A stretch of DNA of 64,000 nt from a virus. Positions 10,515 to 50,620 of the stretch are shown here, piece by piece. Each line of letters begins with the position of its first letter. Position 1 is the stretch's first letter. The position numbers and the translations under genes are program-made. The stretch lies in IMG/VR virus record IMGVR_UViG_3300048999_000192, positions 64,001-128,000 of that record; one strand, given 5' to 3'. A model generated the notes under the pieces. That model made no database searches. It was not told the DNA's origin and saw only the letters and a program-made list of their open reading frames with translations.

Positions 10515-11131
10515 AGCTGAGCATCCACAAGGGGTCGCCCCAGGACGACCCGCCGCTGAACCTGAGGACGGTCGTGCACGCCGAAGAGCTGAGCAACGCC
10601 TACGACGCCTACAGGGCGATCGACGAGCTCTCGCACCTGCGCGATGAGCCCGGGATCCAGTTCGTCGGCGGCGAAGGCTCCCTGGACGCGCCCGTCATGA
10701 TCATCGGCGAGGCCCCCGGCGAGGTGGAGAACGAGCAGGGCCGCCCGTTCGTCGGCCCCTCCGGCGTGCTGCTGCGCAAGCAGCTTCACCGCATCGGCCT
10801 CACCGAGTACGAGGTGTTCCTGACCAACGTGGTGAAGTACCGGCCGCCGGGCAACCGCACCCCGCTGTACTTCGAGGTCGAGCTGTCCCGCGCCTGCCTG
10901 GACGAGGAGATCCGGCTCATCCAGCCCGACCTGGTCATCCTGGCCGGGCGCACGCCGCTCTCCCTGATCCACCACAACGGCTCGATCACCGAGCACCAGG
11001 GCAAGCCGATCATGTTCGAAGAGCGGCTGTGGCTGCCGATCTTCCACCCCTCGGCCGCACTGCGGGACGACACGACCATGGAGGCCTTCCGCGCCTCCTT
11101 CGACCTGATAGGAGCGCTCATCAGTGGATGA
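10511..11131 (+). CDS. Uracil-DNA glycosylase family 4-like
   Basis: IIGEAPG, GRPFVGPSG, TNVVKYRPPGNRTP, PIFHPSAALR motifs. Confidence 0.9.
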   Translation: MKLSIHKGSPQDDPPLNLRTVVHAEELSNAYDAYRAIDELSHLRDEPGIQFVGGEGSLDAPVMIIGEAPGEVENEQGRPFVGPSGVLLRKQLHRIGLTEYEVFLTNVVKYRPPGNRTPLYFEVELSRACLDEEIRLIQPDLVILAGRTPLSLIHHNGSITEHQGKPIMFEERLWLPIFHPSAALRDDTTMEAFRASFDLIGALISG

Positions 11132-23387: not shown

Positions 23388-25337
23388 ATGGGCGCAGAAG
23401 CGGTCAGGCGGCTACGCACCGCCGAGGGCCCAGAGCCCGGCGACGAGCCGACCGCTGAACCCATGCGCGCACAGCGCCGTGGACGCTCTAAGCCCTCCCG
23501 GGAGGACCTGAGGGTCCGGAACCGCACGCGACGCTCGTACGAGACGCCTCAGGCCCGTACGGCCGCCCTCCGCTGCCTCGCCTGCGGCTGCACCGGTCCC
23601 GCCGCCGACCGCTGTGCCGCCTGCGGCTCACTGGCCGTCCAGGCCAACTGGGAGACCGCCCTCGGCCACGGCACCGAGCGCCAGACCGACTGGGACGATG
23701 TCACCCAGGGCTGGAACATGGATCACGCCCGTATCCACCGGGCGATCACACTGCACCCCAGCTCCGACGTCTACGACAAGATCGAGGACCCCGACGTCCC
23801 GGACGAGGAGAAGGCCCAGCACCTGCTGAGCCACCTGCAGAACGGCGGGCGCTCCCTCGGTCGGCACTGGTCGACGGACCTGGACCACGCCAAGCGCGTC
23901 GCGCGGGACGAGGGCTGGTCGGCGATCGGCAACAACTCCTCCGACGACGAGGAGAACGAGTACAAGCTCCCGCTGTCGGTCATGGTGCACGCCAAGTTCC
24001 CCGAGCGGCACCACATCGAGACCGACCCCAGCGTGCTGGAGGAGCACCACGTCACCCCGTGGGGCGGCTCGGAGCACTTCAGCGACGAGTCCGAGGTCCC
24101 GCTGAAGCCGGACGCCAAGGTGCACGTGACGGGGCTGTCCTGGTCGACCAAGACCAACCCGCACCCCAGCGAGTGGACGACCCACCGTTACGACAAGGAC
24201 ACCGAGGCGCACGAGCAGGCGCAGGAGTCCGCGCGCCAGGAGCGCATGGACAACCTGAAGAAGAGCTTCAAGCACGAGGGCAAGCTGGCCAGCGGTGCGT
24301 TCCACGCCCAGCTCCCTCCAGATGCGCACGCGCGGGTGGTGGATGAGAGCCGCCCTGCCGGTGAGAGGGCCAAAGAGCTGCTCGACCACCTGGGCCAGGG
24401 CCACGGCAGCATCCACTGGAGCGAGGGCGCGACCAGCATGCCGCTGGGTCAGGCCAAGATGAGCGCCAACGCGCTGCACCGCAAGACGGGATCGCCAGCG
24501 ATCAGCGGGGAGCTGCGGGGGGTGACCCCCGAGGGCACGACCAAGTACGACGCGGAGCACGGCCTGTCGGGGATCAACCTGCCCATCCACGCGATGCGGT
24601 GGCAGGAGAGCGCACCCGAGCACCCGTACAAGTCGACCGAGCACGAGCACGAGTTTGGGAAGCCGATGACCCATCAGGCTCTGGTACTCGACTGTGAGGC
24701 CTGCGGCCACATGAGCCGTACGGCCTCCTCACGCTGCCGCGCCTGCGGGTCGCTCGCGCTCAAGACGGCCACCGTGCTGATGACCCAGATCGAGCGGGCC
24801 AACCCCGGCGACCAGATGCGCACCCCGCAGGGGCAGTCGGTGCACGTCAAGAAGATCCGCCCGCACGAGACCGACAACACCAAGGTCTACGTGGACACCG
24901 ACCTGGGCACCGCCGTGATGAGCCGTGGCACCGAGGTCAACCTCACCCAGGGGGAGCGCCAGCAGGAGCTCCCTAACTCGGGCAACCCCAGCGGCAACGC
25001 GGGCATGCTGCCCGGCGCCGGGCGCACACCGACGGGAGAGGGTGACGCCGGAGGCGGCGGCTACGCGGCACCACGCTGCCCGCGCGATGGCACCAAGATG
25101 GTCCAGCGCGGGAACACCTGGATCTGCCCCATCGACAACACCACCGCACCACTGTCCTCGGCTCCCGCCGGGATGCAGCCGACCAACCGCGAGACGGGCC
25201 AGATCCTGACCCGCTCGCCAGGACGCAAGCCCCCGCAGACACACCTGTGGGCCACCTATCACACAGCCGGACAGCCTCCGGCGATCGTCCGGCGGGCACG
25301 GCAGGTGCTCGACACCATGGAGGAGATTCGATCGTGA
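23388..25337 (+). CDS. Head-module polyprotein: Zn ribbons plus ADP-ribosyltransferase-like domain(s)
   Basis: CLACG/CAACG, IHRA..GRHWSTD..ESEVPL (R-S-E pattern), second degenerate copy; RTA/KTA junctions. Confidence 0.7.
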   Translation: MGAEAVRRLRTAEGPEPGDEPTAEPMRAQRRGRSKPSREDLRVRNRTRRSYETPQARTAALRCLACGCTGPAADRCAACGSLAVQANWETALGHGTERQTDWDDVTQGWNMDHARIHRAITLHPSSDVYDKIEDPDVPDEEKAQHLLSHLQNGGRSLGRHWSTDLDHAKRVARDEGWSAIGNNSSDDEENEYKLPLSVMVHAKFPERHHIETDPSVLEEHHVTPWGGSEHFSDESEVPLKPDAKVHVTGLSWSTKTNPHPSEWTTHRYDKDTEAHEQAQESARQERMDNLKKSFKHEGKLASGAFHAQLPPDAHARVVDESRPAGERAKELLDHLGQGHGSIHWSEGATSMPLGQAKMSANALHRKTGSPAISGELRGVTPEGTTKYDAEHGLSGINLPIHAMRWQESAPEHPYKSTEHEHEFGKPMTHQALVLDCEACGHMSRTASSRCRACGSLALKTATVLMTQIERANPGDQMRTPQGQSVHVKKIRPHETDNTKVYVDTDLGTAVMSRGTEVNLTQGERQQELPNSGNPSGNAGMLPGAGRTPTGEGDAGGGGYAAPRCPRDGTKMVQRGNTWICPIDNTTAPLSSAPAGMQPTNRETGQILTRSPGRKPPQTHLWATYHTAGQPPAIVRRARQVLDTMEEIRS

Positions 25338-31653: not shown

Positions 31654-34600
31654 GTGCGTCCTGGGGAAGAGTCGGCTCGGTCCGACGCTGGCAAGCAGAC
31701 CGTCTGGCCGGTCGCTGTCGGCGGCGGCCTGGTGGACATGTGCGCCCACCACAAGACGATCCACGAGGGGCACTCCAACCTCGCCAACCAGATCGCCGCC
31801 CAGACCGGCCTGGCGCAGGAGGAGCACGAGGAGCTCACCCCGCACACCGGCACCTGCGTGGAGTGCAAGCGCCGCGCGGGCAAGGGCGAGCTGATGCACT
31901 CGCTCGACTCGGCGCTGCCGACCGGATATCGCAAGAAGCAGGATCAGAGCGACCGTACGCCCCGCAGGCCGTTCGAGCCGGGCAAGACCCGCACCAAGCC
32001 CCTGGAGCCCCTCCCGCCGTCTCTGAACGCCGTGCAGGCCTCCTCCGAGGAGATGCGCCCGCTGCCGGGAGCGCTCTACCACGTCACCACGGCCCGGGAC
32101 GCGGTGCTGGCCCACGGCCTGAAGAACCGCACCGAGCTCGGCCAGCAGTACGGCCACGGCCTCGGTGGCGGCCGGGACGACACGATCTCCCTGACGACCC
32201 ACCGGCCGACGGCCGAGCACCTGCTGCACTCCCTGCACGAGTACCACGACGTGCTCAACGGCAAGATCAAGCTGGCCGACCTGAAGGAGAAGGCCCGGCA
32301 GGGAGTCGGGGCCGAGAAGCCCTATGACTACATGCTGAAGGACCACGCTGACGAGGATCTCGCCGCCGCCGACAAGGGCCGGGCGATCGAGCACCGGATG
32401 CACGACCGCTCCGAGGTGGGCGAGGACTGGAAGCCCCTGGACGAGGGCATGCATGGCACCGGCCCCCAGGGGGAGTACCACCTCCACATGGCCTGGGACC
32501 GGCCGCTGGACCGCTCGGAGCTGCTCCACAAGCGTGATGACGTCTACAAGAAGTTCTCCTGGGGGCGTCAGGGCGCGGGTGGTCACCCCGACCCCCTGTT
32601 CATCGCCAACGACCCCGGCGAGTTCGTCAAGAAGGACCCGGGCCAGTTCGCCCTGATGCACGTGCGCCCTCACGAGGGAGCGCACGGGATCCAGATGAAC
32701 GACCGCACCGAGGGCACCGACGCGGGGGAGTGGCGGGCGCTGTCGGGCAAGGATCTCCACGTCGTGCACCACGAGGGCCGAGAGGCCATCACGCCCCGTA
32801 CGGCCGCCGCTGACCACCACGTCTTCTATCACGTCACGGACAATCCGAACTTCGAGCTGAGCACCACCCACCGGCCGCACCTGAACCTGGAGGGCGGTGA
32901 GGACGAGCACCGCGAGCCAGGCATCCACATGGCTGACCACGAGGGCATCAACCGCTGGATGGGCACCGGCGGGTACATCAGGCCGTACATGGTGGAGCTG
33001 CACGCCCACCCCGAGCTCGACGACCACCCCGACACCGAGCACGGCTTCGCCCGCGAGCGTTACGTCCCGGCCAAGCACTACGACAAGCTGAAGGTCCACC
33101 GCGTGATCCCGCTCGACGCCTGGGACCGCGAGCAGGGCGGTTATGGCCACATGGAGCAGTCGCTGGGCTCGGAGTACGACACCGGCGCGCCCATCGCCAG
33201 CTCACACGAGGACCGGCCCTACCGGCCCCGGACGCCCTACACCGGCCCGGACGCCCGCGAGATGACACCGGAGCAGCACCAGCACCACACCGACCGCTAC
33301 GACCGGTTCATGAGCGACCGCATCAGCCGTCAGGCCGCCTCGTATCCGATCAAGTACACCCGAATGACCCAGAACGGGTACGAGGACGTCGAGGACGAGA
33401 TCGAGGGCCCGCTGTTCCACGGCAGCCGCTCCAAGCGCCTGCAGCCGGGCGACATGATCACCAAGGGCCGCAAGACCAATCCCTGGGGCGACCAGGGCCC
33501 CAAGAGCCAGACGGTCCACTTCACCGTGCACCACGACACCGCGCGGGACTACGCCGACCAGGCGGGCGGCCACGTCTATGAGGTCGAGCCGACGGGGGAG
33601 TTCAAGCACGACTACTCCGGCGGCGACTTCAAGACCGCGCACCCGCTGCGCGTCGTGCGCATGGTGCCGCGTTCGGAGTGGGAGGCCTCCAAGGAGGCCA
33701 GCCGCCGTACGGCCATGACTCCGGAGCGCCGCGCCGAGATCGAGCGCATCCGGCAGGAGCGCAAGAACCGTCCCCGCCGCCCGGCCGGTCAGCCGCGCGC
33801 CGACGCGTTCTCGCACCTGTTCACGCCGATCCCCGAGCACGAGCTGGAGGAGCAGCGCCAGGCGCGTATGCCCAAGCCCGAGCCGATCAACGACAAGACC
33901 TACTCGATCGGCGACGTCAGCAAGCACTACGAGTGGGAGGGCTTCGACCCGTACGAGATCGAGCACCTCGTGCATCACCCGGAGCACGCCCAGTTCACCC
34001 ACGAGGACGTGCCGGTGCACAGCCTGCGCCACATCACCGAGCACGGCGAGCTCGTCAAGCCGCCGTCCTACCGCGACATCGCCGACCAGGGGGATGACGA
34101 GCAGGAGCGGCTCGGGGAGCTGGAGCGCGGGCACGACGACGGCGCCCACATCCCGCCCATCGTCGTCGTCCGCCACGGCGAGCACCACATCATCGCCGAC
34201 GGCTCCCACCGGGCGGCCATCGCGGCCGAGCGCGGCCACACCCACATCCCGGCCTTCGTCACCGAGCGGACGATCATGCCCAAGACCGGTCGCATGGGCG
34301 ATGGCGGCCCCGACCCATTCGAGCGTACGGCCGCGATGCACAACCCCAACGCCAAGGCGGGGCAGGCCGAGGACGAGTGGTACCACGGCAGCCCGCACGA
34401 CTTCGACAGCTTCAGTGACACCGGGTCAAGTAACGACACCGAGGACCACGTCAACCACTGGAACGTGCTCCTGGGCAACCACTTCACTGCGACCCACAAC
34501 GTGGCGCATGACTTCAGCCTGGGCCTGCACCACGCCTCGGACGCGAACGGCAACGACGACGCCGAGGAGCCGCTGGGCCACGTCATCCACGCCAGGCTGC

Positions 34601-36309
34601 ACATCAAGCGGCCCAAGGTCTACAAGTCCGAGCACGACATGGACCAGGAGGTCCACGAGCACGAGGTGAAGCGCGGCAACCTGCTCGACCCGCACCTGCC
34701 CGAGACGCCGCACGAGGACGCCGACGATGACGAGTGGGACGACTACTACGCCGACGCCGGGCACGCGCGGGTCTACCGGGGTGACAGCCATGGGCCCTTC
34801 GGCCCGAACGAGCCGGACCCGAACGTGGCTCACGGCTTCCACCCCAAGGCGACCGGCTGGCTGAACCACCACCCGGACAAGGAGGGCATCGCCGCCCGCC
34901 ACAAGGCCCGGCTGATCAAGCAGGGCTACGACGGCATCGTCTACGGCAATGAGTTCGAGCGGGCCGACGCCGGGGGCAAGGAGAAGTCCGCCATCGCCTT
35001 CCATCCGCATCAGGTCGAGATCACCCAGCACCACTACGGCCGCACCGGCCAGTGCCTGAACCCCGAGGAGTGCGCCCGGCAGCGCGCGGCCGACCACGAC
35101 CCGGGCCAGCTCGCGCTACCCATGGAGCACACTTCGGCCCTGACGGCGGGCGGCGTCAGCCGTCTCGCACTGCCGCTTCCGGCGGAGTGCTGGAGCCGGT
35201 ACCGCTCGACTCTGGGCGACCGTACGGCCTCCTGGGACGACGATGACGAGTGGAGCGAGGACGAGACCTTCCACTGCCCGGCGTGCGGCGAGGACCATGA
35301 GGACGAAGAGACGCGCGACAACCACATGATGGCCCATACCGACTGGGACAGGGTGCATCCCAAGCTTCCCGACACCCTGCACCGGGGCATGGCCGTCTCG
35401 CTGCCGGACGAAGTCCATGACGTCGTCCACGATGAGTCGCGGCCGTCGGCCGAGCGGGCGCAAGCGCTGGCCGACCACGTCAAGAAGCGTGGGCTGGGCA
35501 TGCACTTCACGGACGACAAGCAGCAGGCCGCGCACTACTCGCACGTCTACCACCAGCCTGGCGACACCCACGTGATCGTGCACTCGCGCAAGCCGGACAT
35601 GCATCACATCGAGACCGACCCCGGTGAGCTCGAATCCCAGCAGGTCATCGGTTATGGCCAGCACGATGACAACGAGATCCCGATTCGCTCCGGCGCGCCC
35701 GTGCACGCCACCGGGATCTCCTGGAAGCACGAGGATCCCAAGGCCGACTGGCATACGCACAACTTCGGAAGGTCCATGGAAATGACCGCGATGCGCAAGC
35801 AGGCCCACGACAGCGGTGACGGTCAGCGGATCTTCCACTGCCCGTTCTGCGGTGCTGGCCAGGTGATCGCCCGTTCGGACGGCACCACCGAGTGCGAGTT
35901 CTGCCACCAGGCCTTCACGGTCCAGGTGCAGCCGCAGTTCAACAGCTTCCCGCAGACCGACCCGACCACCGGCCTGCCGATCATGATCCCGGGCATGCCG
36001 GGCCAGATCGATGCCCCTGGCACGCCGCCAGGGGCTCCAGGAGGCGCTCTGCCGCCCGGAGCGGACGAGGAGTCGGACAACCCGTTCGCGGCCGACAGCG
36101 GTGACGAGAGCGGCCCTCCCGGGGCCGATGACGGTGGGGACGACTCCGGCGATGGCGGGGACGATAACAAGCCGGACTTCCTGAAGGGCTCCAGCTTCCG
36201 GACGGCCTCGGGCGACCTGCTCACCGAGGCGGCCTACACCCGCCACCTCGCGCTGCGCTTCTCGGCCAACCCTGAGAAGATGATCGAACTGCTGCGGAGC
36301 GGGCGATGA
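31654..36309 (+). CDS. Polyvalent polyprotein with multiple ADP-ribosyltransferase-like domains, ParB/Srx-like domain and Zn ribbons
   Basis: LYHVT..ISLT; FYHVT..GIHM; LFHGS..VHFT..VYEVEPTG..PLRVV (Arr-like); IPPIVV..ADGSHR (ParB/Srx); WYHGS..GNHFT..GYDGIVY (ART-PolyVal-like); LHRG..GMHFTD..NEIPI; CPFCG..CEFC. Confidence 0.85.
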   Translation: MRPGEESARSDAGKQTVWPVAVGGGLVDMCAHHKTIHEGHSNLANQIAAQTGLAQEEHEELTPHTGTCVECKRRAGKGELMHSLDSALPTGYRKKQDQSDRTPRRPFEPGKTRTKPLEPLPPSLNAVQASSEEMRPLPGALYHVTTARDAVLAHGLKNRTELGQQYGHGLGGGRDDTISLTTHRPTAEHLLHSLHEYHDVLNGKIKLADLKEKARQGVGAEKPYDYMLKDHADEDLAAADKGRAIEHRMHDRSEVGEDWKPLDEGMHGTGPQGEYHLHMAWDRPLDRSELLHKRDDVYKKFSWGRQGAGGHPDPLFIANDPGEFVKKDPGQFALMHVRPHEGAHGIQMNDRTEGTDAGEWRALSGKDLHVVHHEGREAITPRTAAADHHVFYHVTDNPNFELSTTHRPHLNLEGGEDEHREPGIHMADHEGINRWMGTGGYIRPYMVELHAHPELDDHPDTEHGFARERYVPAKHYDKLKVHRVIPLDAWDREQGGYGHMEQSLGSEYDTGAPIASSHEDRPYRPRTPYTGPDAREMTPEQHQHHTDRYDRFMSDRISRQAASYPIKYTRMTQNGYEDVEDEIEGPLFHGSRSKRLQPGDMITKGRKTNPWGDQGPKSQTVHFTVHHDTARDYADQAGGHVYEVEPTGEFKHDYSGGDFKTAHPLRVVRMVPRSEWEASKEASRRTAMTPERRAEIERIRQERKNRPRRPAGQPRADAFSHLFTPIPEHELEEQRQARMPKPEPINDKTYSIGDVSKHYEWEGFDPYEIEHLVHHPEHAQFTHEDVPVHSLRHITEHGELVKPPSYRDIADQGDDEQERLGELERGHDDGAHIPPIVVVRHGEHHIIADGSHRAAIAAERGHTHIPAFVTERTIMPKTGRMGDGGPDPFERTAAMHNPNAKAGQAEDEWYHGSPHDFDSFSDTGSSNDTEDHVNHWNVLLGNHFTATHNVAHDFSLGLHHASDANGNDDAEEPLGHVIHARLHIKRPKVYKSEHDMDQEVHEHEVKRGNLLDPHLPETPHEDADDDEWDDYYADAGHARVYRGDSHGPFGPNEPDPNVAHGFHPKATGWLNHHPDKEGIAARHKARLIKQGYDGIVYGNEFERADAGGKEKSAIAFHPHQVEITQHHYGRTGQCLNPEECARQRAADHDPGQLALPMEHTSALTAGGVSRLALPLPAECWSRYRSTLGDRTASWDDDDEWSEDETFHCPACGEDHEDEETRDNHMMAHTDWDRVHPKLPDTLHRGMAVSLPDEVHDVVHDESRPSAERAQALADHVKKRGLGMHFTDDKQQAAHYSHVYHQPGDTHVIVHSRKPDMHHIETDPGELESQQVIGYGQHDDNEIPIRSGAPVHATGISWKHEDPKADWHTHNFGRSMEMTAMRKQAHDSGDGQRIFHCPFCGAGQVIARSDGTTECEFCHQAFTVQVQPQFNSFPQTDPTTGLPIMIPGMPGQIDAPGTPPGAPGGALPPGADEESDNPFAADSGDESGPPGADDGGDDSGDGGDDNKPDFLKGSSFRTASGDLLTEAAYTRHLALRFSANPEKMIELLRSGR

Positions 36310-36476
36310 AGGTCTGGGTCCTGGTCGACTTCACCGGCCCCTCCGGCCAGCGGTACACCAAAGGCAGCCAGCTCACCCTCCCCAATGACACGCCCGAGCA
36401 GCAGGCCTACGTCTCGTCACTGATCCGCTACGGCATCGTGACGACGGCCAAGCCCGCGACAGGAGCCACCACGTGA
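36306..36476 (+). CDS. Small hypothetical protein (56 aa, not in ORF track)
   Basis: ATGA/GTGA-coupled between polyprotein and portal. Confidence 0.65.
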   Translation: MKVWVLVDFTGPSGQRYTKGSQLTLPNDTPEQQAYVSSLIRYGIVTTAKPATGATT

Positions 36477-38671
36477 CCGACGACTTCGCGAACCGCATCG
36501 CCGGTGTCCAGAGCGCCATGAAGGCCAAGTCCCCGTTCTCTCGTAAGCGGGCGCAGGACACCGGCACCGGCGAGGCGGCCGAGATGCGCCGCAACCGCGC
36601 CGTGAACAAGAAGGTCGCCGCCGCAGGGTCCGGCAGCGACATCTCCTTCGCTACCGGCCGCCCGAGAGATCCCCTTTTCTACTGGAAGCAAAATAACCTT
36701 CCATATGACTTCGGTAAGCATGAGGAGCTGCGGAAGGTAAGAGCATTCTGTCGCCTTCTGTACCAGACTGACTCAATTATCGGTTCGGCGATCGACATCT
36801 ACTCCAAGTGGCCGCTGATCGGCATGGAGCTGTCGTGCAAGGACCAGAAGCTGACCGACTTCTACACCAACCTTTTCGGATTCGGTGAGGACGCCGACGA
36901 CAGCTCGCTCGACTACGAGGCCTTCCTGCCCCGCGTCGGCCGGGAGTACTGGACCGTCGGTGAGGCGTGGCCATTCGCCACGTTCAACCCGATGCTCGGT
37001 GTCTGGGAGGACGAGGAGCTCCTGCAGCCGGACGACGTCGATGTCCAGCGCAGCCCGTTCCTGAAGGACCCGAGGTTCTTCATCCGGCTGCCCGAGACCA
37101 TCCGCCGCCTGATGCAGACCCGCCAGCCAGCCTGGGAATACAACAAGCTGATGCAGGCGTATCCCGAGCTGGTCAACTACACCCACGAGAACCAGCTCAT
37201 GCCGGTCTCCAACATCCTGCTGCAGCAGATCAAGTTCGAAGGCGACACGTTCAACCCGCGCGGTGTCCCGCTGCTGACCCGCGCCATGCGCCCGGTGATG
37301 CAGCAGGAGATGCTCAACGCGGCCATGGACGCCATCGCCGACCGGATGTACACCCCGCTCATCCTGGTCAAGCTCGGCGCGTCCGCCTCTGACCTGGGCA
37401 CCAACGCCCCGTGGATCCCGACCGGTGATGACCTCGCCGATTTCGAGGAGGCGCTGGACGCGGCGCTGGCCGCCGACTTCCGCGCGCTGATCTACAACTT
37501 CGCGATCGACATCGAGTCCGTGTTCGGCCGGGAGCAGATGCCCGACCTGACGCCGGACTTCGAACGACTCGAAGACAAGATCCTCCAGACGTTCGGCCTG
37601 TCCCGGACACTCCTGACCGGTGCCTCGGCCGGTGAGACCTACGCCGCCGACGCGCTGAACCGCGACCTGATCACCCAGCTCCTGACGCACTACCAGAAGC
37701 TGATCAAGCATCACTGGCGGCAGCGGGCGCTGGTCGTCGCCGAGGCCCAGGAACATTTCGACTATGACGTCCGCAATGGGAAGCGCTACGTCAAGATGGA
37801 AGAAATCCTCGAAGTCGACGAGGAGACCGGCGACGAGCGCATCATCGAGCAGCCCAAGCTGCTGATCCCCGACCTGCACATGCAGACGATGAACCTGCGG
37901 GACGAGGAGCAGGAGCGCCAGTTCATGGAGGCGCTGCGTCAGGGCGGCGTGCCGATCTCCATGAAGACCAGGGTCCGTAACCTCCCGATCGACCTGGACG
38001 AGGAGATCGAGCGCAGCCAGGAGGAGGCCGTCCAGCTCATCGTCTCCGAGGCCGAGACCCGCAAGCGTGCCTACCAGGCGCTGCGCAACAACGGCCTGCC
38101 GATCCCGGACGACCTGCGCACCGAGTTCGAGGCCCTCGCCCAGCAGGCGCAGCAGCCCAGCCCGGCACTGTCGGCTGGCCAGCCGCAGATGATCCCCCAG
38201 CTCGGCCAGGACCCGCAGGCCGCCGACACGCCCAACCTCGCCCCGACGCAGCAGGACTTCCAGAACGACCCGCAGGACGAGTCCTCGGTGATGGCCCCGG
38301 TCATCCCGATGCCGATGGCTCCCCCGGGCGGAGAGGAAGAGGGCGACGCCCGGCCGGAGGAGTCCGACGAGGAGCGCGACGGCATGCCCACCTCGGCCGT
38401 GCTCTACCGGAAGGCCCAGAGCATGCGCACGGTGGCGGCCACCCGGCACGCCGACGTGGTCGAGGCCGAGCAGAAGCTGGCCCGCGAGCAGGCCTGGGCC
38501 GAGTGGGAGGTCAATCGCGTCGAGGCCGCCGCCAACGGCACCGACATGCCCGCGACGCCGCCAGAGGACCTGACCGCCTACACGGTGCCCGCCCAGATGC
38601 GCGGCCCGATGCACATCGGCCAGCGGCGCAACCTCGATCGGGACTGGAAGGCCGCGCTCGACGACGACTGA
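36473..38671 (+). CDS. Portal protein
   Basis: 732 aa; IGSAIDIYSKWP, PRGVPLLTRA, AIADRMYTPLILVKLG motifs as recalled for cluster-C-like portals; position in head module. Confidence 0.8.
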   Translation: MTDDFANRIAGVQSAMKAKSPFSRKRAQDTGTGEAAEMRRNRAVNKKVAAAGSGSDISFATGRPRDPLFYWKQNNLPYDFGKHEELRKVRAFCRLLYQTDSIIGSAIDIYSKWPLIGMELSCKDQKLTDFYTNLFGFGEDADDSSLDYEAFLPRVGREYWTVGEAWPFATFNPMLGVWEDEELLQPDDVDVQRSPFLKDPRFFIRLPETIRRLMQTRQPAWEYNKLMQAYPELVNYTHENQLMPVSNILLQQIKFEGDTFNPRGVPLLTRAMRPVMQQEMLNAAMDAIADRMYTPLILVKLGASASDLGTNAPWIPTGDDLADFEEALDAALAADFRALIYNFAIDIESVFGREQMPDLTPDFERLEDKILQTFGLSRTLLTGASAGETYAADALNRDLITQLLTHYQKLIKHHWRQRALVVAEAQEHFDYDVRNGKRYVKMEEILEVDEETGDERIIEQPKLLIPDLHMQTMNLRDEEQERQFMEALRQGGVPISMKTRVRNLPIDLDEEIERSQEEAVQLIVSEAETRKRAYQALRNNGLPIPDDLRTEFEALAQQAQQPSPALSAGQPQMIPQLGQDPQAADTPNLAPTQQDFQNDPQDESSVMAPVIPMPMAPPGGEEEGDARPEESDEERDGMPTSAVLYRKAQSMRTVAATRHADVVEAEQKLAREQAWAEWEVNRVEAAANGTDMPATPPEDLTAYTVPAQMRGPMHIGQRRNLDRDWKAALDDD

Positions 38672-38719: not shown

Positions 38720-41700
38720 ATGCGGATGCAGCGTACGGCCCGGCAGCACACCACGCTCCAGGCGACGGCAGGGGTCAACAGCGAGGACTACTTTGACTTC
38801 CGGCCCAAGCAGCGGGTGATGACGGCCGACGGGTACCCGGGCCGCGTCGAAGCCGTGCACGATGGCCCGCACGCCGGGAGCGAGGCGTACGAGGTCGTCC
38901 TGGACGGCGGCATGGGCGGTGGGCTGTACGCCTCCAGCCAGCTCCACGCGCTCGCTGACGACGCTCACACGGCCGCCGGGGACTACCCCGAGCTGGAGGA
39001 CGTCCTCTCCGCCCGGCCCGACCCGGCCAAGCAGGTCGTGATGGCCAAGAAGGCCGCGCGCAAGAGGGCGTCGACCCTCCCCGACGATCACCCCGACAAG
39101 GTCTACCTCCGCTTCGGCCACTGGCCGAAGAACGAGCGTTCCGCGAATGGCGTCACGGGCCACCCAGAGGACGGGGTGAGCGTCTACGACCTTGACCACA
39201 AGGGCGAGCCCATGGACCCGGACCCCAACCTCAGCCGGGGCCACGAGCATGACGAGTCTTGCGATCCGGACTGCGATCTCGATAGCTGGAACGAGGACTA
39301 CGGCAACGACACCCGCGAGGAGATGAACGGCCGGGTCTATCGCGCGGAGAAGGCGCGGGCCAACGGTCACGACTACCGGGGCGAGGTCGGCCACCTGGTC
39401 AAGGGCAAGATGACGGGCATCGGCCACGATGGTGAGCCGCTGCTGAACAACGTCAAGCGCGTCGGTGACTGGATCGACCACCGGCACATGTTCATCCCGA
39501 CGGCGAGCCCGCACCGGCTGGCCAGGGGTGAATACGACGAGGACTACGAGCCGCCGTCGTCCAAGCTGGCCACCACCCAGAACGGCACCCGGATCGACGG
39601 CCACGGTGAGGCCCCGCACGAGGTGCGCGCCAAGGACCCCAACGGCTACGACGCCAAGAGCACCGAGGGCGACCCGGACCCGCTCATGTCCAAGCCGCTG
39701 ACCAAGAAGGACGAGGTCGGCGCGCACGGGGGCGAGCTCGGCAAGGGGATGTCCGGCGTCTCCTTCGAGGGCGCGATGTCCCCCATGCAGAAGCAGAAGA
39801 TCGAGGACCGCGAGGACGCCCGGCAGGACGTGGTCGATCAGCATTCGCAGGTGAACGACGCCCGGCGCGACCGCACCGACGTCGGCGACGTCCAGCGGGT
39901 CGAGGACCCGGCGTACGCCAAGTACCTGCAGTCCCTGAACGCGCTCACCGTACGGGCCGACTGGGACGACCCGGAGCACGGCGCGGAGTGGCGGCGTCCC
40001 TGGGACGTGATGCCCGTCCACCACGACGACGGCCGCTGGCACGACCCCGAGCTGGACAAGAACTACGAGCACGACACGGCCGAGCCTGAGGCCGACGACT
40101 CCTCCACGGCCCACGCCGCGCACCTGCACCTGCCGAACCCGGAGGAGGACCCGGACGCGCTGGCCAGCCACATGGTCGACGCACACGGCTACGACCTGGA
40201 CAAGGTCAAGCAGATGATGATGGTCCACCGGCTGATGAGCGGCCAGCACGAGATGGACCACGAGACCGAGCCGGGTGGCATGGGCCTGCACCCCGACGAC
40301 TTCTCCCTCCCGCACGACCACCCGGACCGCTGGCTGGAGCACGGGTCGATCCCGGGGCCGGAGGGCGGCGTCGAGCAGGCCGGAGCCCGTGGCGACACCG
40401 GCCACGCGCTCGACAGCAGCAGGCCGTTCGAGCTCAAGCCCTGGCATATGAACTACTCGCTGAGCTCGCTGGCCGACCCGTACGCCCTGGTCGCCTCGGC
40501 CGCCCAGGACCGGGACCTGGGATTCCAGCTCACCGCCGCCTGGACCGACGTTCGCAACAAGGCCAAGCGGATCCGGTCAGAGGGCAAGGTCAGGATCACC
40601 CTGGCCAGTGACGGCCTGGTGGCTGGTGAGGTGCAGGGGGACCACCAGACGTATGAGACCGGCATCCAGCGCCTGCCCGGCTCCCGCCACGGCGTGGCCA
40701 CCTGGAGCTGCGGCTGTAAGTGGGGCGCCTACCACTGGGGCGCCAGCGACGACTTCAGCCGCTTCGCCGGTCGGATGTGCTCTCACGCCCTGGCCCTGCA
40801 GTACGAGGCCCAGAGTCGGGGGATGTTCGGCAAGACCGTCGAGGTCGACACCTCCAAGCCGGACTGGGTGCCGCCGCGCGTGGTGGTCAAGTACAACCCC
40901 GACACCGGCCACAGCGACTTCGCCAAGTCCTCCTCACTGGTCACCCCCGAGCTGTCCCCGCTGCAGATCTTCTGCGCGTACGCGGGCAACGACGGGGAGA
41001 CCGCCGACCAGATCACCTGCCTGCTGCACACGGCCGGGCTGGTCGAGGGGTACTCCAACAGCCCGTGGGGCGAGCCGATCGCCGAGGTGCCGCCCAAGCC
41101 GTACGGGGCGACCCAGCCCGCCAACAAGTGGGAGGACCCGGGCAGCGCCGGGTTCCTCGCCACGCCCGACCCCGAGGACTGGGGCGGTCTGGGGCAGAAC
41201 AACCAGATGTACTCCACGTCCAGCCTGGACGAGGCGGTGTTCGAGCCCGTCCTGGCCAGTCCCCAGGGGGCGTATGAAGATCAGGACAGTCCTGCCGATC
41301 CGGAGGGCCTGGAAGCGACCCTGCACGACACTCCCGAGCCAGCTCTTCCCGAGACCGACGGCGGCCGGGAGGACATGGTCGGCGAGCACGCCGAGGACCT
41401 CACGCCGGACGACCAGTCGATGATGACGGTCGGCAACCAGATGGGCGGGGCCGACGAGGTCCTGGACGAGACCCAGAACACCACCCCGCAGGACCTGGAC
41501 GACGTCGTGGCGCGCTTCCAGGCCTCCGCCGGGGCCAAGGCCATCATGGCCGACGCCGGGACTCCCAGCGGGCCTGCAGCGCGCGAGGGGGCCTCCGCCG
41601 CGCCCTCGGACGGCGACATCGCCGCCCACGCGCGCCAGGTGCTGGCCCTGAAGGCCTTCAGCCCGGCCGAGCAGGCCTCCCTGATCAACGAGGGCGTCGG

Positions 41701-41788
41701 GGAGCGCGCGGCCAACTTCGACAAGCTCGACATCGCCGGGACGCACTACGCCGACCTGGACGACGAGGACGACACATGGCTGAGCTGA
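38720..41788 (+). CDS. Large multi-domain head-module protein with SWIM-type Zn finger
   Basis: WSCGCKWG..CSHALA; VYLRFG..EDGVSVY module; RTA/HTA/KRA/KLA junctions; acidic C-terminus. Confidence 0.75.
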   Translation: MRMQRTARQHTTLQATAGVNSEDYFDFRPKQRVMTADGYPGRVEAVHDGPHAGSEAYEVVLDGGMGGGLYASSQLHALADDAHTAAGDYPELEDVLSARPDPAKQVVMAKKAARKRASTLPDDHPDKVYLRFGHWPKNERSANGVTGHPEDGVSVYDLDHKGEPMDPDPNLSRGHEHDESCDPDCDLDSWNEDYGNDTREEMNGRVYRAEKARANGHDYRGEVGHLVKGKMTGIGHDGEPLLNNVKRVGDWIDHRHMFIPTASPHRLARGEYDEDYEPPSSKLATTQNGTRIDGHGEAPHEVRAKDPNGYDAKSTEGDPDPLMSKPLTKKDEVGAHGGELGKGMSGVSFEGAMSPMQKQKIEDREDARQDVVDQHSQVNDARRDRTDVGDVQRVEDPAYAKYLQSLNALTVRADWDDPEHGAEWRRPWDVMPVHHDDGRWHDPELDKNYEHDTAEPEADDSSTAHAAHLHLPNPEEDPDALASHMVDAHGYDLDKVKQMMMVHRLMSGQHEMDHETEPGGMGLHPDDFSLPHDHPDRWLEHGSIPGPEGGVEQAGARGDTGHALDSSRPFELKPWHMNYSLSSLADPYALVASAAQDRDLGFQLTAAWTDVRNKAKRIRSEGKVRITLASDGLVAGEVQGDHQTYETGIQRLPGSRHGVATWSCGCKWGAYHWGASDDFSRFAGRMCSHALALQYEAQSRGMFGKTVEVDTSKPDWVPPRVVVKYNPDTGHSDFAKSSSLVTPELSPLQIFCAYAGNDGETADQITCLLHTAGLVEGYSNSPWGEPIAEVPPKPYGATQPANKWEDPGSAGFLATPDPEDWGGLGQNNQMYSTSSLDEAVFEPVLASPQGAYEDQDSPADPEGLEATLHDTPEPALPETDGGREDMVGEHAEDLTPDDQSMMTVGNQMGGADEVLDETQNTTPQDLDDVVARFQASAGAKAIMADAGTPSGPAAREGASAAPSDGDIAAHARQVLALKAFSPAEQASLINEGVGERAANFDKLDIAGTHYADLDDEDDTWLS

Positions 41789-45935: not shown

Positions 45936-46018
45936 GTGCGTGACGTCCTGAGAGCCTTCAGGTAGCTTTGGGGGAGAGCACCGATCGACCCGCCCCCGGG
46001 TCCGGCTGTGCACCCCCA

Positions 46019-46052
46019 GAAGAGCCCCTGCCACCCCCGGCAGGGGCTCTTC
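46019..46052 (+). terminator. Hairpin terminator ending the early island
   Basis: 14-bp stem GAAGAGCCCCTGCC/GGCAGGGGCTCTTC. Confidence 0.7.
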
Positions 46053-46088
46053 GCTGTGCAGGCCCCTCTCACCCCGAGGAAGAGGTGA
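46053..46088 (+). promoter_or_regulatory. Putative late promoter
   Basis: GCTGT-N21-GAAGAGGTGA. Confidence 0.75.
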
Positions 46089-46102
46089 CAGAGGGGAAGG
46101 TC

Positions 46103-49100
46103 ATGCTGCGGAAGATCGCGACGCTGGAAACGCTGGAGGCGTACCGGGTCCCGGCGCACGCCGACGCACGCGCCCTGCGCAAGGCCGCCCACCGGGTGAG
46201 CTTCGAGTACACCCCCCGCCCGGGGTACCTCTACGTGCGTTCGCGGGCCATCAGCTCCCGGTGCAACGACAACTTCGACGAGTTCCCAGCCGAGGAGATC
46301 GCGAAGGCCTACGCGACCTTCAAGGGCAAGCCGGTGTTCGTCAACCACCACAACGACGACCACCGGCGGATGCGTGGCGTGATCATCGACGCCGCACTGC
46401 ATCAGGATCGCAACCCCGACGGCACCCCGGACACCTGGGCCGAGGTCCTGATGGAGGTCGACGCCAAGACCTTCCCCAAGCTCGCCAAGGCGATCCTGGC
46501 CGGTGAGGTCGACCGTACGAGCATGGGCTGCGACGTCCAGCTCTCGGTCTGCTCGGCGTGCGGCAACAAGGCCACCAACCCGGCGGAGTACTGCCAGCAC
46601 ATCCCGGCCATGAAGGGCCAGCGCATCTTCCGCGCCACCGCCTCCGGCCAGCGCGAGGGGCACCTGGTCCGGGAGATCTGCTACGGCCTGGGCTTCTTCG
46701 AGAACTCCCTGCTCGTCGAGGAGCCCGCCGACCCCACCGCCTACTTCCTCGGCGTGGACGACCGTGGCATGAGGGCGACGGCCACTCAGCACGGCGAAGA
46801 GCCGCCCGGATGGATCAACGACGTCAAGGACCAGGCGGATGAGCTGGCGAGCCGTAACGGCCACAGCATCTCCTGGAAGTACCGAGGCGAGCCCCAGTGG
46901 AAGAGCAGCTCGGGTTACGTCGCAGGCTGGCAGGGCGAATGCGCCAACGATGGGTGTGATGCTCCGGCCAGTCAGACCAGCCGGGCTCACACGGACAAGG
47001 TCCGCACCATCAGCATCCGCGAGGACCAGCCCGGCGAGCTGAAGGACATGATGCCGCCGTTCCTGCGGCGACGCTGCAAGGGGACCACGGTGGAGTCCAG
47101 CCGGAAGACGGCGGCCGAAGATCACTGGGCCATGCCGATCTTCCAGCACTTGAAGGACGCGCACGGCCTGGATGACGATCAGATCGCCGAGGGCATGCTC
47201 GCCGCCGGAGCCGAGCCGAACATGAACCAGGGCATCAAGCTCGACCATCTGTTCCACGCCCACAAGAACCTGCACGGCGGGGACTACCAGACACCGACCG
47301 GCGCGCAGCGGCACGGGCACACCCCCGAGGACCCGCTGATCTCCAGCGAGTTCAGGCCCTCACGCATGCAGATGAATCAGTCGGAGATCTACAACGACAA
47401 GCCCGCCTGGGGACCGAGGAGTCTCGGCCCGTACCGGATGCGGGCGGACGAATACGGCGATTTCAAGCCTCTTCGGCAGTCGCAGAACGCCAAGACGGCC
47501 GACGTCCGCCACAACCCGCAGTACGAGGGCACCCATTGCCTGATGTGCGGCGACCCGGTTCGCTGGAATTCCAACCCGGCCAAGCAGAGCCTGCCCAGCG
47601 GGGGCTGGTACCACCACGACAGCATCAAGCGCGATCACCACGCGCTCCCGGCTGACCCGGAGGCCGTGATGAACGACGTCCCTCGCCAGGACGCCCAGCG
47701 AGACCAGATCGACGCGCAGATCCGCGAGCAGTACGGCTTCGGCCCCAAGCGGCACAAGGACATGCCGCTGGACCCCTTCGTATCCGCCTACGCGCCCGAG
47801 CTGGACGAACTCGGCCCGGTCGAGGCCGCCGCCGGTCCGAAGTACCCCGACCCGGCCGATCACCCGTTCTTCAAGAAGAACCCGATCAACCATCAGCACA
47901 TCGTCGACACCTACAACGAATCCGACGAGGGCACGCGGGCGCAGGGCAAGCGCTGGTACCCCGACGCGCACATCCTGGCCAAGGCGATCGACCCCGAGGG
48001 CAACGCGGCGCGCGGCGCTGGCGTGCTGTCGGCCTACTCCCCACAGACCTCCTGGCCGGTCAACGCCATGAACGCCGCCCGGTCCCTGCAGCGTGGCAAG
48101 GCCATGCAAAAGGGCGAGGGCCAGATCATGGCCAGTCACGCCAAGAGCGCCCAGCGCATCATCGAAGGCGAGCACCACAGCGACGTCTTCAAGGGCCCCA
48201 AGATCCGGGCGTTCGCCCACCTGATCGAGCACGGCGGTGATGACCACTCCGTCGTGGTCGACCGGCACGCGCTCTCGGTGGCCATGGGCAAGCGCGTCAG
48301 CAAGGACGACCTCGCCGACGCGCCGCTGAGCACCCCGCACTACTACGGCCACGTCGAGCGGGCCTACCAGGACGCGGCCAAGCAACTGTCCGGCCAGCAC
48401 GGTGAGACGATCCACCCGCACGAGGTGCAGGCGACCACCTGGCTGCAGCAGCAGAAGCGCAACGCGGTCGACAACGAGACCGCCCGGGGCGGCCAGGGCA
48501 AGGGCCTGATCACCCGGGACAAGAACGACTGGCGCGACTGGGAGAACTACCACCAGAAGAACCACCCGGACCTGCCCAAGAGCCTGCACACCACCAACCC
48601 GCACGCCCCCAAGACCGAGGCGATGCGCAAGGGTGCGCCGTTCGCGGGCTATGAGGACTTCGCGGCGTGTGTCGCGGCCAACCAGGACAAGGACGACCCC
48701 GAGGCCTACTGCGGCTCGATCAAGCACAAGGTCGAGGGTGCCCAGCACACCGCCGCGCACAGGGTCTACGTCGACCAGGCCGAGGGCAGTCACGGCCGGA
48801 TGGTCACCTTCAGCGGCGAGGACAAGGGCGGCTACCTCAGCCGGGGCGACGGCACGTGGATGGCCGAGAACGACAACGGCTCGGTGGTGCACGAGCACCG
48901 CGACCACAAGCGGGCCCTGCGCGGCCTGGCCGATCACTACGGCCTGACCGGCGATCTCGACGTCGAGTACACACACGAGGGCACCGGGAACAGGAAGAAC
49001 TTCACCGTCCCGGGCAAGACGGCCGCGCTGAACGACGTCGTGGCCCCGCCCGAGGTCGACACGCTGCGGGATGAGGAGTGCCCGGTCTGCGGTGAGGTCG

Positions 49101-50620
49101 AGGTCTACGACGGGGAGCGGTGCCCGGTCTGCGGGTTCGTCGCGCCGCCGGAGATGTTCCGCGACCCGGACCTGGAGATGGCCAAGTCGATCGACCTGCG
49201 TCAGGACCAGCAGGCGCAGGCCGGTGACCCGGCGCCAGGCCAGGCCAACCCGGACGTGCCCGGTGGCGGCCTGGTCGACCCGTCCCAGCTCGGCGATGAC
49301 CCGCTGGCCGACCAGCTCCAGCATCCGGACCAGCTCGGCCCGAATGGCGAGATGGGCGAGCCCGGTACGCCAGGCGACGGCACGCCGGACCTGTTCTGCC
49401 CCGCCTGCGGCGAGGGCTTCGACGCGGGCCAGCCGATGACCACCGATGGTGACCCCGCCACGCTGGACGCCAGCGGCCCGGCCGAGGGCACCCCGTGCCC
49501 GAACTGCGGGATGTCCACCCTGCTCTCCCCGAACGACATGGAGGGCATGGGCATCGGCCCCGACGGCGAGCAGGCCGTCGCTGAGGAGGCCGAGGAGATG
49601 GGCGACCGGCCGATGGATGCCGGAACCCCCGAAGAGGACCCGGAGGCTCCCCAGGAGGGTGAGGGGCCGCCAGAGCAGCAAGAGGAGGAGGGGCCGCCGA
49701 CCGAGGAGGACGACGATTCCGACGAGCCTGCTGTGGACGAGGACGACCAGCCCTCGAAGAAGCGAGACGACAAGAATGCAAAGGGAGCGTCCATGAGCAA
49801 GTCCGTCGAGGCGGCGCTGGCGGCGAACACGGCCGCTGTCGGTAGCCTCATGCGCGAGCTGCGCATCGTCCGAGCGCAGAACGACCTGATCGCCAAGGCA
49901 GCCGGTCTGGAGGGCGAGTTCTCCGAGATCCGCCGTCAGGCCGACATCAACAACCCGGCCAGCCCCGTGCCGGACCCGGGCGAGCAGGCCCCGTCCGAGA
50001 CCACGGAAGAGGCGGTCACCCCTGAGGCGGCCGACGACCCGCAGCGTCCCGGCATGACCCCGGGCTCTGTCGGCGGTGTCCCGGCCGAGCAGGTCGACAC
50101 CCCGCTGCGCCCTGGCGTCACCCTCCCGGCGGCACCGGCCACCAACCTGGTCGACGTCACCGCGCCGGTCGCGGGCACCAACACCGGCGAGCTCTCGCCG
50201 GAGCAGACCCGCATCGAGACCGACGTGCGCGTGGGCGACCCGATGGCGAACGCGAACAGCGACGAGTCCAAGATGTTCCCGTGGACCATCGGTGCTCAGA
50301 ACGCCAACCGGACCATGGCCTCCATGCGTCTGGCCGAGCTGCGCATCGCGGCCAACCTCGCCCCTGCGGGCGACCGGTTCGCGCTGGCGGCCTCGATCGA
50401 GACCGACGCCAACCTCCCGGACGCCGCCCTGGCGACCGAGATCCGCACCCTGGAGGCCGTCTCCCGTACGGCCGCCCGCCAGCCGCGCCCGACCAACCTG
50501 GTCCCGCGTGCGGCGGCCACCGAAGGCCGTACGGCCCCGAGCCTGGCTCCCCAGCCGGTCGGTGCCCCGGTCGGCGGCGGCGGGTACGACGACACGGCCG
50601 ACTCCGACCTGTTCTTCTGA
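46103..50620 (+). CDS. Capsid maturation (prohead) protease fused to cargo domains, Zn ribbons and C-terminal scaffold
   Basis: GKPVFVNH, RTSMGC, FFENSLLVEEPADP protease motifs; internal RWY..SAYSPQTSW..GPKIRAF..VVDRHA..VQATTW domain; CPVCG repeats; upstream of capsid genes. Confidence 0.85.
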   Translation: MLRKIATLETLEAYRVPAHADARALRKAAHRVSFEYTPRPGYLYVRSRAISSRCNDNFDEFPAEEIAKAYATFKGKPVFVNHHNDDHRRMRGVIIDAALHQDRNPDGTPDTWAEVLMEVDAKTFPKLAKAILAGEVDRTSMGCDVQLSVCSACGNKATNPAEYCQHIPAMKGQRIFRATASGQREGHLVREICYGLGFFENSLLVEEPADPTAYFLGVDDRGMRATATQHGEEPPGWINDVKDQADELASRNGHSISWKYRGEPQWKSSSGYVAGWQGECANDGCDAPASQTSRAHTDKVRTISIREDQPGELKDMMPPFLRRRCKGTTVESSRKTAAEDHWAMPIFQHLKDAHGLDDDQIAEGMLAAGAEPNMNQGIKLDHLFHAHKNLHGGDYQTPTGAQRHGHTPEDPLISSEFRPSRMQMNQSEIYNDKPAWGPRSLGPYRMRADEYGDFKPLRQSQNAKTADVRHNPQYEGTHCLMCGDPVRWNSNPAKQSLPSGGWYHHDSIKRDHHALPADPEAVMNDVPRQDAQRDQIDAQIREQYGFGPKRHKDMPLDPFVSAYAPELDELGPVEAAAGPKYPDPADHPFFKKNPINHQHIVDTYNESDEGTRAQGKRWYPDAHILAKAIDPEGNAARGAGVLSAYSPQTSWPVNAMNAARSLQRGKAMQKGEGQIMASHAKSAQRIIEGEHHSDVFKGPKIRAFAHLIEHGGDDHSVVVDRHALSVAMGKRVSKDDLADAPLSTPHYYGHVERAYQDAAKQLSGQHGETIHPHEVQATTWLQQQKRNAVDNETARGGQGKGLITRDKNDWRDWENYHQKNHPDLPKSLHTTNPHAPKTEAMRKGAPFAGYEDFAACVAANQDKDDPEAYCGSIKHKVEGAQHTAAHRVYVDQAEGSHGRMVTFSGEDKGGYLSRGDGTWMAENDNGSVVHEHRDHKRALRGLADHYGLTGDLDVEYTHEGTGNRKNFTVPGKTAALNDVVAPPEVDTLRDEECPVCGEVEVYDGERCPVCGFVAPPEMFRDPDLEMAKSIDLRQDQQAQAGDPAPGQANPDVPGGGLVDPSQLGDDPLADQLQHPDQLGPNGEMGEPGTPGDGTPDLFCPACGEGFDAGQPMTTDGDPATLDASGPAEGTPCPNCGMSTLLSPNDMEGMGIGPDGEQAVAEEAEEMGDRPMDAGTPEEDPEAPQEGEGPPEQQEEEGPPTEEDDDSDEPAVDEDDQPSKKRDDKNAKGASMSKSVEAALAANTAAVGSLMRELRIVRAQNDLIAKAAGLEGEFSEIRRQADINNPASPVPDPGEQAPSETTEEAVTPEAADDPQRPGMTPGSVGGVPAEQVDTPLRPGVTLPAAPATNLVDVTAPVAGTNTGELSPEQTRIETDVRVGDPMANANSDESKMFPWTIGAQNANRTMASMRLAELRIAANLAPAGDRFALAASIETDANLPDAALATEIRTLEAVSRTAARQPRPTNLVPRAAATEGRTAPSLAPQPVGAPVGGGGYDDTADSDLFF

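Follow-up and report, generated by a model that had tools for sequence, protein, structure and literature searches.

What kind of protein is encoded by a very long gene that stands just ahead of the portal gene in a large phage genome, and what would such a protein do for the virus? The gene in question lies in IMG/VR virus record IMGVR_UViG_3300048999_000192, which comprises 155,098 bp and is rated complete by CheckV. We analysed bases 64001–128000 of the record (the window: 64,000 nucleotides, GC ∼68%, to which all positions refer unless stated), where the gene occupies positions 31654–36309 on the plus strand, which also carries all features of the window given below, in the form of a single open reading frame (ORF) of 1551 codons plus stop, starting from GTG. 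We hold it reasonably likely that the product is one polyvalent effector in which two putative Zn modules, M0 and M7, frame five ADP-ribosyltransferase (ART) modules of five families (M1, M2, M3, M5 and a probable M6) together with one further module, M4, and that this protein is packaged in the capsid, probably processed, and injected. It is established that there is a single gene, that its modules are shuffled among relatives, that four of them are ARTs and that the place ahead of the portal is conserved. What distinguishes the protein is that its five ARTs come from five different families, rather than ART density.

A first-pass annotation of the window, made by a model from the letters, had described this single ORF, and it exists as claimed. 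Its coding signal (GC content at third and second codon positions, GC3 0.92 and GC2 0.44) is typical for real genes in the window, and a Shine-Dalgarno sequence, GGAGG, lies ∼8 nt upstream of the GTG at 31654. A series of several genes or a frameshift artefact was considered and rejected in view of the one open frame, the even coding signal and the full-length homologues. The public protein collection starts the same product at an internal ATG at 31738 (1523 amino acids (aa)); similarity of the relatives begins already at residues 1–4 in BLAST comparisons, and GTG 31654 is therefore the better start.

A search of 5.8 billion proteins yielded 81 relatives of 940–2709 aa, mostly encoded on contigs of 100–165 kb, and BLAST matches to these homologues define the borders of modules M0–M7. 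The eight blocks recur in the relatives with varying order and copy number. M7 is always C-terminal (40 copies), M0 is N-terminal or internal (35 copies), and M6 is the commonest module (119 copies among the 81 relatives). From 3 to 7 ART-type modules per protein is the rule among them, and up to 12 ART copies are on record for one polyvalent protein (PMC5512222), so the earlier view that ART density is unusual here was overstated. By the number of different module kinds the window protein comes first among its relatives, a rank that is biased, as the modules were defined from it. The segment borders drawn at first pass agree within a few residues with the independently derived BLAST borders, and the motifs then quoted are present (LYHVT at residue 141, ISLTT 178, FYHVT 391, PGIHM 417, PPIVV 834, DGSHR 849, YHGS 910, GNHFT 941 and GYDGIVY 1091), as are the C-terminal Zn ribbon and acidic tail. 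The description as a polyvalent phage protein also holds, with eight modules and a head-module context.

The two N-terminal segments with YHVT motifs had been taken for ART folds, to be checked with AlphaFold and Foldseek. Both give high-confidence models whose neighbours are almost exclusively ARTs in VIA-align; Foldseek alone returned no significant match. Structural neighbours were collected in an exhaustive VIA-align search of 48,161 representative chains, a tool that warns for Z below 8. The AlphaFold2 model of M1 (32035–32808, residues 128–385) reached pLDDT 88.2 and pTM 0.84 with a 21-row alignment, and its best 50 VIA-align rows are all ART-fold proteins. At the top stands the nicotinamide adenine dinucleotide (NAD) lobe of KptA/Tpt1 (Z 8.3–8.7, root-mean-square deviation (rmsd) 2.4–2.5 over 86–88 residues), and 12 Tpt1/KptA entries match at Z 7.7–8.7 with rmsd 2.4–3.3 over 86–93 residues; diphtheria toxin (Z 7.7), Scabin (7.5), Arr (6.2) and DarT1 (5.8) follow. 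Since the aligned residues span model positions 5–247 around an insert of ∼140 residues that finds no match, the ART core of M1 appears to be split. As modelled, M1 is an ART fold interrupted by this insert, with the Tpt1/KptA NAD lobe as its nearest neighbour. Ten residues are invariant in the 21-row alignment (H143 of LYHVTT, K157, R159, E161, S179, H198, R305, D320, E359 and R361), and, judged from these, M1 carries the conserved beta-1 His (H143) and the downstream acid (E359) expected of the ART superfamily.

Foldseek searches of the PDB with M1 gave no significant match, the rows being unrelated proteins except for DarT1 at rank 38, and neither Pfam nor PHROG contains a model that matches it. 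M1 is nearly confined to large polyvalent proteins, with one standalone-length relative found. A lead from the Atlas to PARP, present in 16% of a single cluster (score 0.88), was set aside as too weak. Tpt1/KptA RNA 2'-phosphotransferases provide the best structural match, and the LYHxT start of M1 resembles their YHGT; in contrast to them, M1 lacks the N-terminal RNA-binding lobe that bears the catalytic Arg/His of Tpt1, has the ∼140-residue insert and shows no sequence-level match. As a lead, these neighbours suggest nucleic-acid phosphate ends as a Tpt1/KptA-like target of M1.

M2 (32806–33336, residues 385–561) is a compact module. Its family has no Pfam model and is widespread: exhaustive searching with HMMER yielded 175 representative clusters at E≤1e–3, many of them standalone proteins of ∼180–250 aa. 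With 33 family members aligned, its AlphaFold2 model reached pLDDT 90.2 and pTM 0.87. The best VIA-align matches are ParT (Z 5.6–5.9, rmsd 3.0–3.3 over 102–104 residues), RES (5.1) and MbcT (4.8), followed by diphtheria toxin (Z 4.4), PARPs, Rhs ART toxins and others. Because nearly every listed neighbour among the 48,161 representatives belongs to the ART superfamily, we infer that M2 is also an ART fold, a divergent one. Conserved in the family are H393 (of YHxT), W435, Y441, R443, E448, E468, R483 and D488. Foldseek against the PDB returned nothing significant, with weak rows that are almost all ART proteins, while M2 has no match in Pfam, PHROG or PDB sequences and a profile search of the PDB was empty. 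Against BFVD it gave mostly weak rows of giant-virus 'ankyrin' proteins, an unnamed 1213-aa protein at E 5e–4 and a mycobacteriophage 'ADP-ribosyltransferase' at rank 17. The neighbourhoods of two standalone M2 relatives were uninformative.

The toxin ARTs of the ParT/RES/MbcT group (a Prs-ADP-ribosylating toxin and NADase and NAD+ phosphorylase toxins) are thus the best structural matches of M2 (Z 4.8–5.9 over 96–105 residues) and are equally compact. They differ in that the Z values are low, within ∼1.5 units of the diphtheria-toxin and PARP-type matches, in the M2 motifs (YHxT, W, YxRP, E, E, RxxPxD) and in that no antitoxin partner is evident for M2. This likeness suggests, as a lead from the model, NAD+ breakdown or nucleotide-synthesis enzymes as the target. 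Comparison of M1 or M2 with the other modules by hhalign gave no link at useful probability; the M1–M3 profile score is nevertheless above column-permuted controls. As a separate observation, chain 9k3a_B of the cyanophage A4 pre-ejectosome (PDB; residues ∼1418–1645) weakly matches both the M1 and M2 models (Z 4.2 and 3.2). The paper on this structure has no mention of an ART fold (PMC12002296), and the domain may be an overlooked ART-like domain of an ejection protein.

Two further modules, named Arr-like and ART-PolyVal-like at first pass, are backed by Pfam, and they are the sole Arr-ms and ART-PolyVal matches in the 155-kb genome. M3 (33337–33705, residues 562–684; BLAST block 557–685) belongs with Arr, the rifampin ART family: it matches Arr-ms (PF12120, cut-off 25) at 31.7 bits as a segment, 30.3 in the six-frame translation and 25.8 in the whole protein, the match lying at nt 33412–33633 and covering only profile positions 1–75 of 99. 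A joint profile of M3 and M4, searched against the PDB, matches only Arr proteins, namely the solved structures of ARR-2 (9iba_A, E 0.021) and Arr (E 0.51). M3 is also 49.6% identical to a protein of Streptomyces phage Frankenweenie, which is the one Arr-like match, and the only match, that nucleotide and protein searches of the cultured-phage collection returned. Compared with Arr itself (PF12120; PDB 2hw2, 9iba), M3 passes the cut-off and aligns to ARR-2 via the HG[ST] and VEPTG motifs; unlike Arr, it is embedded in a 1551-aa phage effector. By analogy with Arr, a small molecule is suggested as its target (compare PMC9503650).

Might such chemistry then be the whole point of the protein? On this account, the host-phage pair would benefit because the Arr-like module inactivates antibiotics of the rifamycin type, or else a diffusible metabolite by which actinomycetes resist viruses, the remaining modules being accessory. 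The Arr-ms match speaks for it, and the same two roles have been proposed for Arr-family ARTs of Microbacterium and Gordonia phages (PMC9503650). We consider it very improbable, since it accounts for 1 of 8 modules, the match stops short of the last part of the Arr profile, and the Arr-like module is duplicated and shuffled in relatives like the other effector modules.

M5 (34312–35142, residues 887–1163; BLAST block 886–1195) is an ART-PolyVal domain with an acidic insert of ∼85 residues. In the whole protein it scores 34.4 bits against ART-PolyVal (PF18760, cut-off 31.2), over profile positions 10–78 of 140; the match is borderline, with 29.0 bits for the segment alone and 20.6 bits for one six-frame stretch. 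The relative P0018 scores 53.4 bits for ART-PolyVal over the stretch homologous to M5. Proteins are the suggested target of M5, in analogy to what PMC5512222 proposes for ART domains in polyvalent proteins.

Of the roughly five different ART-like domains counted at first pass, four are thus supported (M1, M2, M3 and M5), and the one described as R-S-E-like, M6, is probable only, through a profile-profile link and motifs. M6 (35236–35796, residues about 1195–1382) contains TDW, HRG, GxH[WF]T, ExEVP and SW motifs, in which R and T are spaced by 42 residues and T and E by 55. In hhalign it matches the M5 profile with a probability of 59–77% over the beta-2/helix/beta-3 stretch (GxH[FW]T…A..FA…LHA). 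The score of 36.8 compares with 12.4 ± 2.0 (maximum 17.0) for 50 column-permuted versions of M5, ∼12 standard deviations above, and is comparable to the control pair Arr and ART-PolyVal (35.6 versus 11.1 ± 1.5 permuted). Searches with M6 found no standalone relatives, no profile match in the PDB and no Pfam match. In ARTs of the R-S-E clade, beta-1 holds an Arg and beta-2 a Ser/Thr motif, and [QE]-x-E precedes beta-5; the motifs of M6 agree with the R-S-E-like description of the first pass. On profile and motifs we regard M6 as quite probably the fifth ART-like domain.

Do these modules still work as enzymes? Most of them could be catalytically dead, in which case the chain would be a building material inside the capsid or of the ejection channel, or a set of decoys that bind, for instance, defence signals made from NAD. 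Their strong divergence from characterised ARTs (Z 5–9, identity 10–20%) would agree with this, as would the weak matches of the M1 and M2 models to pre-ejectosome chain 9k3a_B (Z 3.2–4.2) and the presence of the pseudo-PARP domains of TASOR and PARP13 among the structural matches of M1. Against it, the beta-1 His of YH[VG][TS] and downstream Glu, Asp and Arg residues are invariant or nearly so within each family, as expected for active sites, and Arr and ART-PolyVal are enzyme families. We find loss of activity in most modules decidedly unlikely.

Three modules stand outside the set of ARTs. M0 (31654–32043, residues 1–130) has conserved C30, H33, C68 and C71, a probable Zn site, and no Pfam or PHROG match. 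M7 (35800–36306, residues 1383–1551) combines a four-Cys Zn ribbon at 1396–1417 with Pro/Gln-rich and acidic low-complexity stretches (the acidic tail at ∼1470–1506) and a conserved C-terminal helix; only weak Zn-ribbon matches were obtained from Pfam. The Cys/His patterns of M0 and M7 are typical of zinc binding, which is probable for both, and M7 is a candidate for the part that anchors the protein in the virion.

M4 (33709–34308, residues 686–885) had been called a ParB/Srx domain, and here the motif stood and family membership did not. The ParB/Srx pattern consists of a strand and a Gly-x-x-Arg active-site motif (…ϕϕDGxHR…A), then …IPϕ.V. The core of M4 (nt 34153–34218) reads PPIVVVRHGEHHIIADGSHRAA, and the motif PPIVVVRHGEHHIIADGSHRAAIAAERGHTHIPAFV is present in the translation and invariant in 13 homologues. 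The only Pfam match of the core is to ParB_N (PF02195) at 12.7 bits (E 0.14, profile positions 23–79 of 95), below the cut-off of 26.3. The segment 680–893 (214 residues) gives no ParB_N match at E≤10, and a six-frame ParB_N scan of the genome was empty. The nearest named Atlas clusters contain ParB_N in 18–21% of members. We therefore list M4 as a candidate ParB/Srx-like module and do not file it as a family member.

Where the gene stands bears on how the protein might reach its targets. The portal gene, at 36473–38671 (phrog_2833, E 6e–149), confirms the first-pass placing upstream of the portal; the two genes are not strictly adjacent, with a 56-codon ORF at 36306–36476 between them that overlaps the polyvalent stop by ATGA and the portal start by GTGA. 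Farther downstream, positions 45968–50620 encode a protein of 1550 aa that belongs to the head module and is a candidate processing enzyme: its residues 103–254 match a head maturation protease domain (phrog_18299, E 5e–22), and it also carries DUF7178 (residues 643–827) and long stretches without assignment. The major head protein is encoded downstream of the portal in the same module as the protease domain. As the portal, the protease-domain protein and the major head protein all lie downstream, the polyvalent gene belongs to the head module. The order polyvalent gene then portal is kept in two relatives, L007 and L006, whose portals are 60% and 77% identical to that of the window. In L006 the slot between the two genes holds a 55-aa gene (10662–10829), while L007 is without a small ORF and its polyvalent gene and portal overlap directly. 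The domain sets of these portal-adjoining relatives differ from the window: M5-M3-M0-M6-M6-M7 and M3-M4-M5-M3-M6-M7. A conserved slot before the portal with a variable payload is the pattern of polyvalent proteins.

Proximity to the portal might be a matter of operon history. The protein could be an unpackaged multi-enzyme, made late or throughout infection and acting in the producing cell like ModA and ModB of T4, where components of the host or the phage would be its substrates, or NAD+ would be depleted. That Pfam detects no known capsid-targeting or MuF domain is in line with this, and ARTs near packaging genes might counter immunity directed against portal or terminase (PMC9503650). Three observations make us regard it as unlikely: the head-module position is kept in relatives with 60–77% identical portals, the invariant C-terminal module lacks enzyme-like matches, and the junctions between modules, together with the nearby head protease domain, fit processing inside the capsid.

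These junctions are marked by a short motif, [RKH][TQ]A, which occurs 10 times in the protein against 2.2 expected from shuffles (P 5e–4). Six of the 10 sites lie on BLAST-derived module borders (Ala at 384, 561, 687, 893, 1192 and 1384), and ends of BLAST high-scoring pairs fall within ±8 residues of the ten sites 176 times versus 53 expected (P 0.002). In the homologues the motif is found in 31–55% of the sequence windows at many module ends compared with 8% background, a 4–7-fold enrichment. With the protease domain nearby, the junctions agree with a polyprotein that is cleaved inside the capsid between its domains, by analogy with T4 Alt and internal proteins.

Under the packaged-effector reading, the protein would be produced together with the structural proteins of the head and enclosed in the capsid, perhaps by means of the invariant M7. 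The head maturation protease may cut it at the [RKH]-[TQ]-A junctions, and the protein or its fragments would enter the cell along with the phage genome. There the modules would either draw on host NAD+ for the ADP-ribosylation of a range of targets (proteins, the ends of nucleic acids and perhaps a small molecule) or would consume it, disabling host defence and transcription in the first minutes. The first-pass suggestion of several targets or of NAD+ manipulation seems a reasonable conjecture. A bolder form supposes a true polyprotein: the protease would cut the junctions in the capsid and free at least five different NAD+-using enzymes and a ParB-type nuclease or NTPase, co-injected, each against a host system of its own. 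In that case M1, M2 and M6 would represent three new ART families, one of which, M2 (175 clusters or more), would be common among uncultured phages, and throughout this lineage of 150-kb actinophages the junction would act as a signal for the processing of cargo. All of this together we consider rather doubtful.

Several points weigh against the packaged five-family effector. Packaging, cleavage and injection are read only from gene position and motif statistics. No MuF (Phage_Mu_F), metallopeptidase or other known virion-anchoring domain was found by Pfam in the protein or its segments, nor MuF by PHROG. As for the junction motif, recombination could have left it behind as no more than a conserved linker. 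Among the ART calls, that of M6 comes from a profile link and motifs, ART-PolyVal falls below its cut-off for the segment alone (29.0 versus 31.2 bits), and the Z-scores of M2 (up to 5.9) are within the range that, according to the tool, can reflect a common arrangement. The ParB/Srx signal of M4 is weak and sub-threshold, and defining modules from the protein itself inflates its rank among relatives by 'five different kinds'.

How far is such a protein already known? For polyvalent proteins, the presence of ART and ParB-type domains and a late-gene context have been described, and one such protein has 12 ART copies (PMC5512222), so multi-ART polyvalent proteins as such are not new; head-module ARTs are a stated theme of PMC9503650. 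The window protein shares with the polyvalent proteins of Iyer, Burroughs, Anand, de Souza and Aravind (2017, PMC5512222) many unrelated enzymatic domains per polypeptide, the late or packaging gene context, ART-PolyVal, multiple ARTs, possible ParB-type companions and predicted delivery with DNA. Two of their defining features are found here: unrelated domains in one polypeptide and a late, packaging or virion gene context. It differs from them in that its ARTs are of five families and not repeats of one, in that zincin metallopeptidase, MuF and portal fusion are absent, in M1, M2 and M6, which have no Pfam or PHROG model, in the framing by N- and C-terminal Zn modules, and in the [RKH]-[TQ]-A junctions.

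T4 Alt offers the other comparison, as a head-associated ART proposed to enter with the DNA and to modify host proteins at once, with prohead protease processing in the model. Alt differs in that it consists of one R-S-E (Alt/VIP2) domain and bears a targeting peptide at its N terminus, whereas packaging is only predicted here; no Alt/VIP2-type Pfam match was obtained in the polyvalent protein or its segments. Against the libraries and the papers searched, the new elements are five ART families in one chain, the M1, M2 and M6 families, the M0/M7 frame and the junction motif.

Module exchange extends beyond this one gene. One full and one partial paralogous copy of M6 lie at 23586–24500 in a 649-aa ORF (23388–25337; hmmsearch independent E-values 7e–41 and 5e–8), and more copies occur ahead of the window, in an open frame of 1988 aa (G000:C1:49127-51535). 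The genome thus has at least three proteins assembled from a module pool that contains M6. No macrodomain was found in the genome. Directly 3' of the portal, a 1022-aa gene (38720–41788) matches only PHROGs of unknown function (phrog_2940 and phrog_30974); in relatives, the gene that follows the portal encodes another polyvalent protein, in which Arr-like and M6 modules occur (L006 from 15008, L007 from 11948). The protein encoded at 45968–50620 may itself be a fusion or polyprotein. The portal of L006 (10826–13975; flanks 77% identical) is split by an intein of ∼340 residues with a LAGLIDADG domain, and LAGLIDADG_3 matches also appear in several polyvalent relatives.

Judged by their portals, Bixzunavirus-type mycobacteriophages and large phages of Gordonia and Rhodococcus come closest among cultured phages, at 38–40% identity. 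In the equivalent pre-portal slot Mycobacterium phage Tonenili has a 1095-aa protein with no similarity to ours and no Pfam match. Near its portal Tonenili (L013, 33543–35798) also encodes a 751-aa 'hypothetical protein' with two GNAT acetyltransferase regions, which resembles an unannotated polyvalent-type head-module effector. When viral contigs were scanned for related loci, neither the whole protein nor the M1 alignment as query led to confirmed relatives, and comparison of the whole protein with PDB sequences gave only noise. An assembly of Streptomyces cellulosae includes a 152-kb contig of this phage lineage (protein MGA5598386.1) and therefore suggests its host range; the phage is probably a large actinobacterial phage with a Streptomyces host.

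Injected ADP-ribosyltransferases are among the first weapons of a phage, and only T4 Alt is understood in detail. The gene described here unites five different ART scaffolds in a construct that occurs in nature, with recognisable junctions at the borders of each. Two of them, on confident models, resemble the Tpt1/KptA enzymes that ADP-ribosylate RNA and DNA phosphates and the NAD-consuming toxins ParT, RES and MbcT. If the modules are inactive, the case would bound the extent to which the ART fold is reused as capsid cargo. If they are active, they would add as many as three ART families to those covered by present domain libraries, and would provide a compact panel with which to identify the Streptomyces systems (RNA polymerase, nucleotide synthesis, nucleic-acid ends, NAD-dependent defence) whose shutdown a phage needs on entry.

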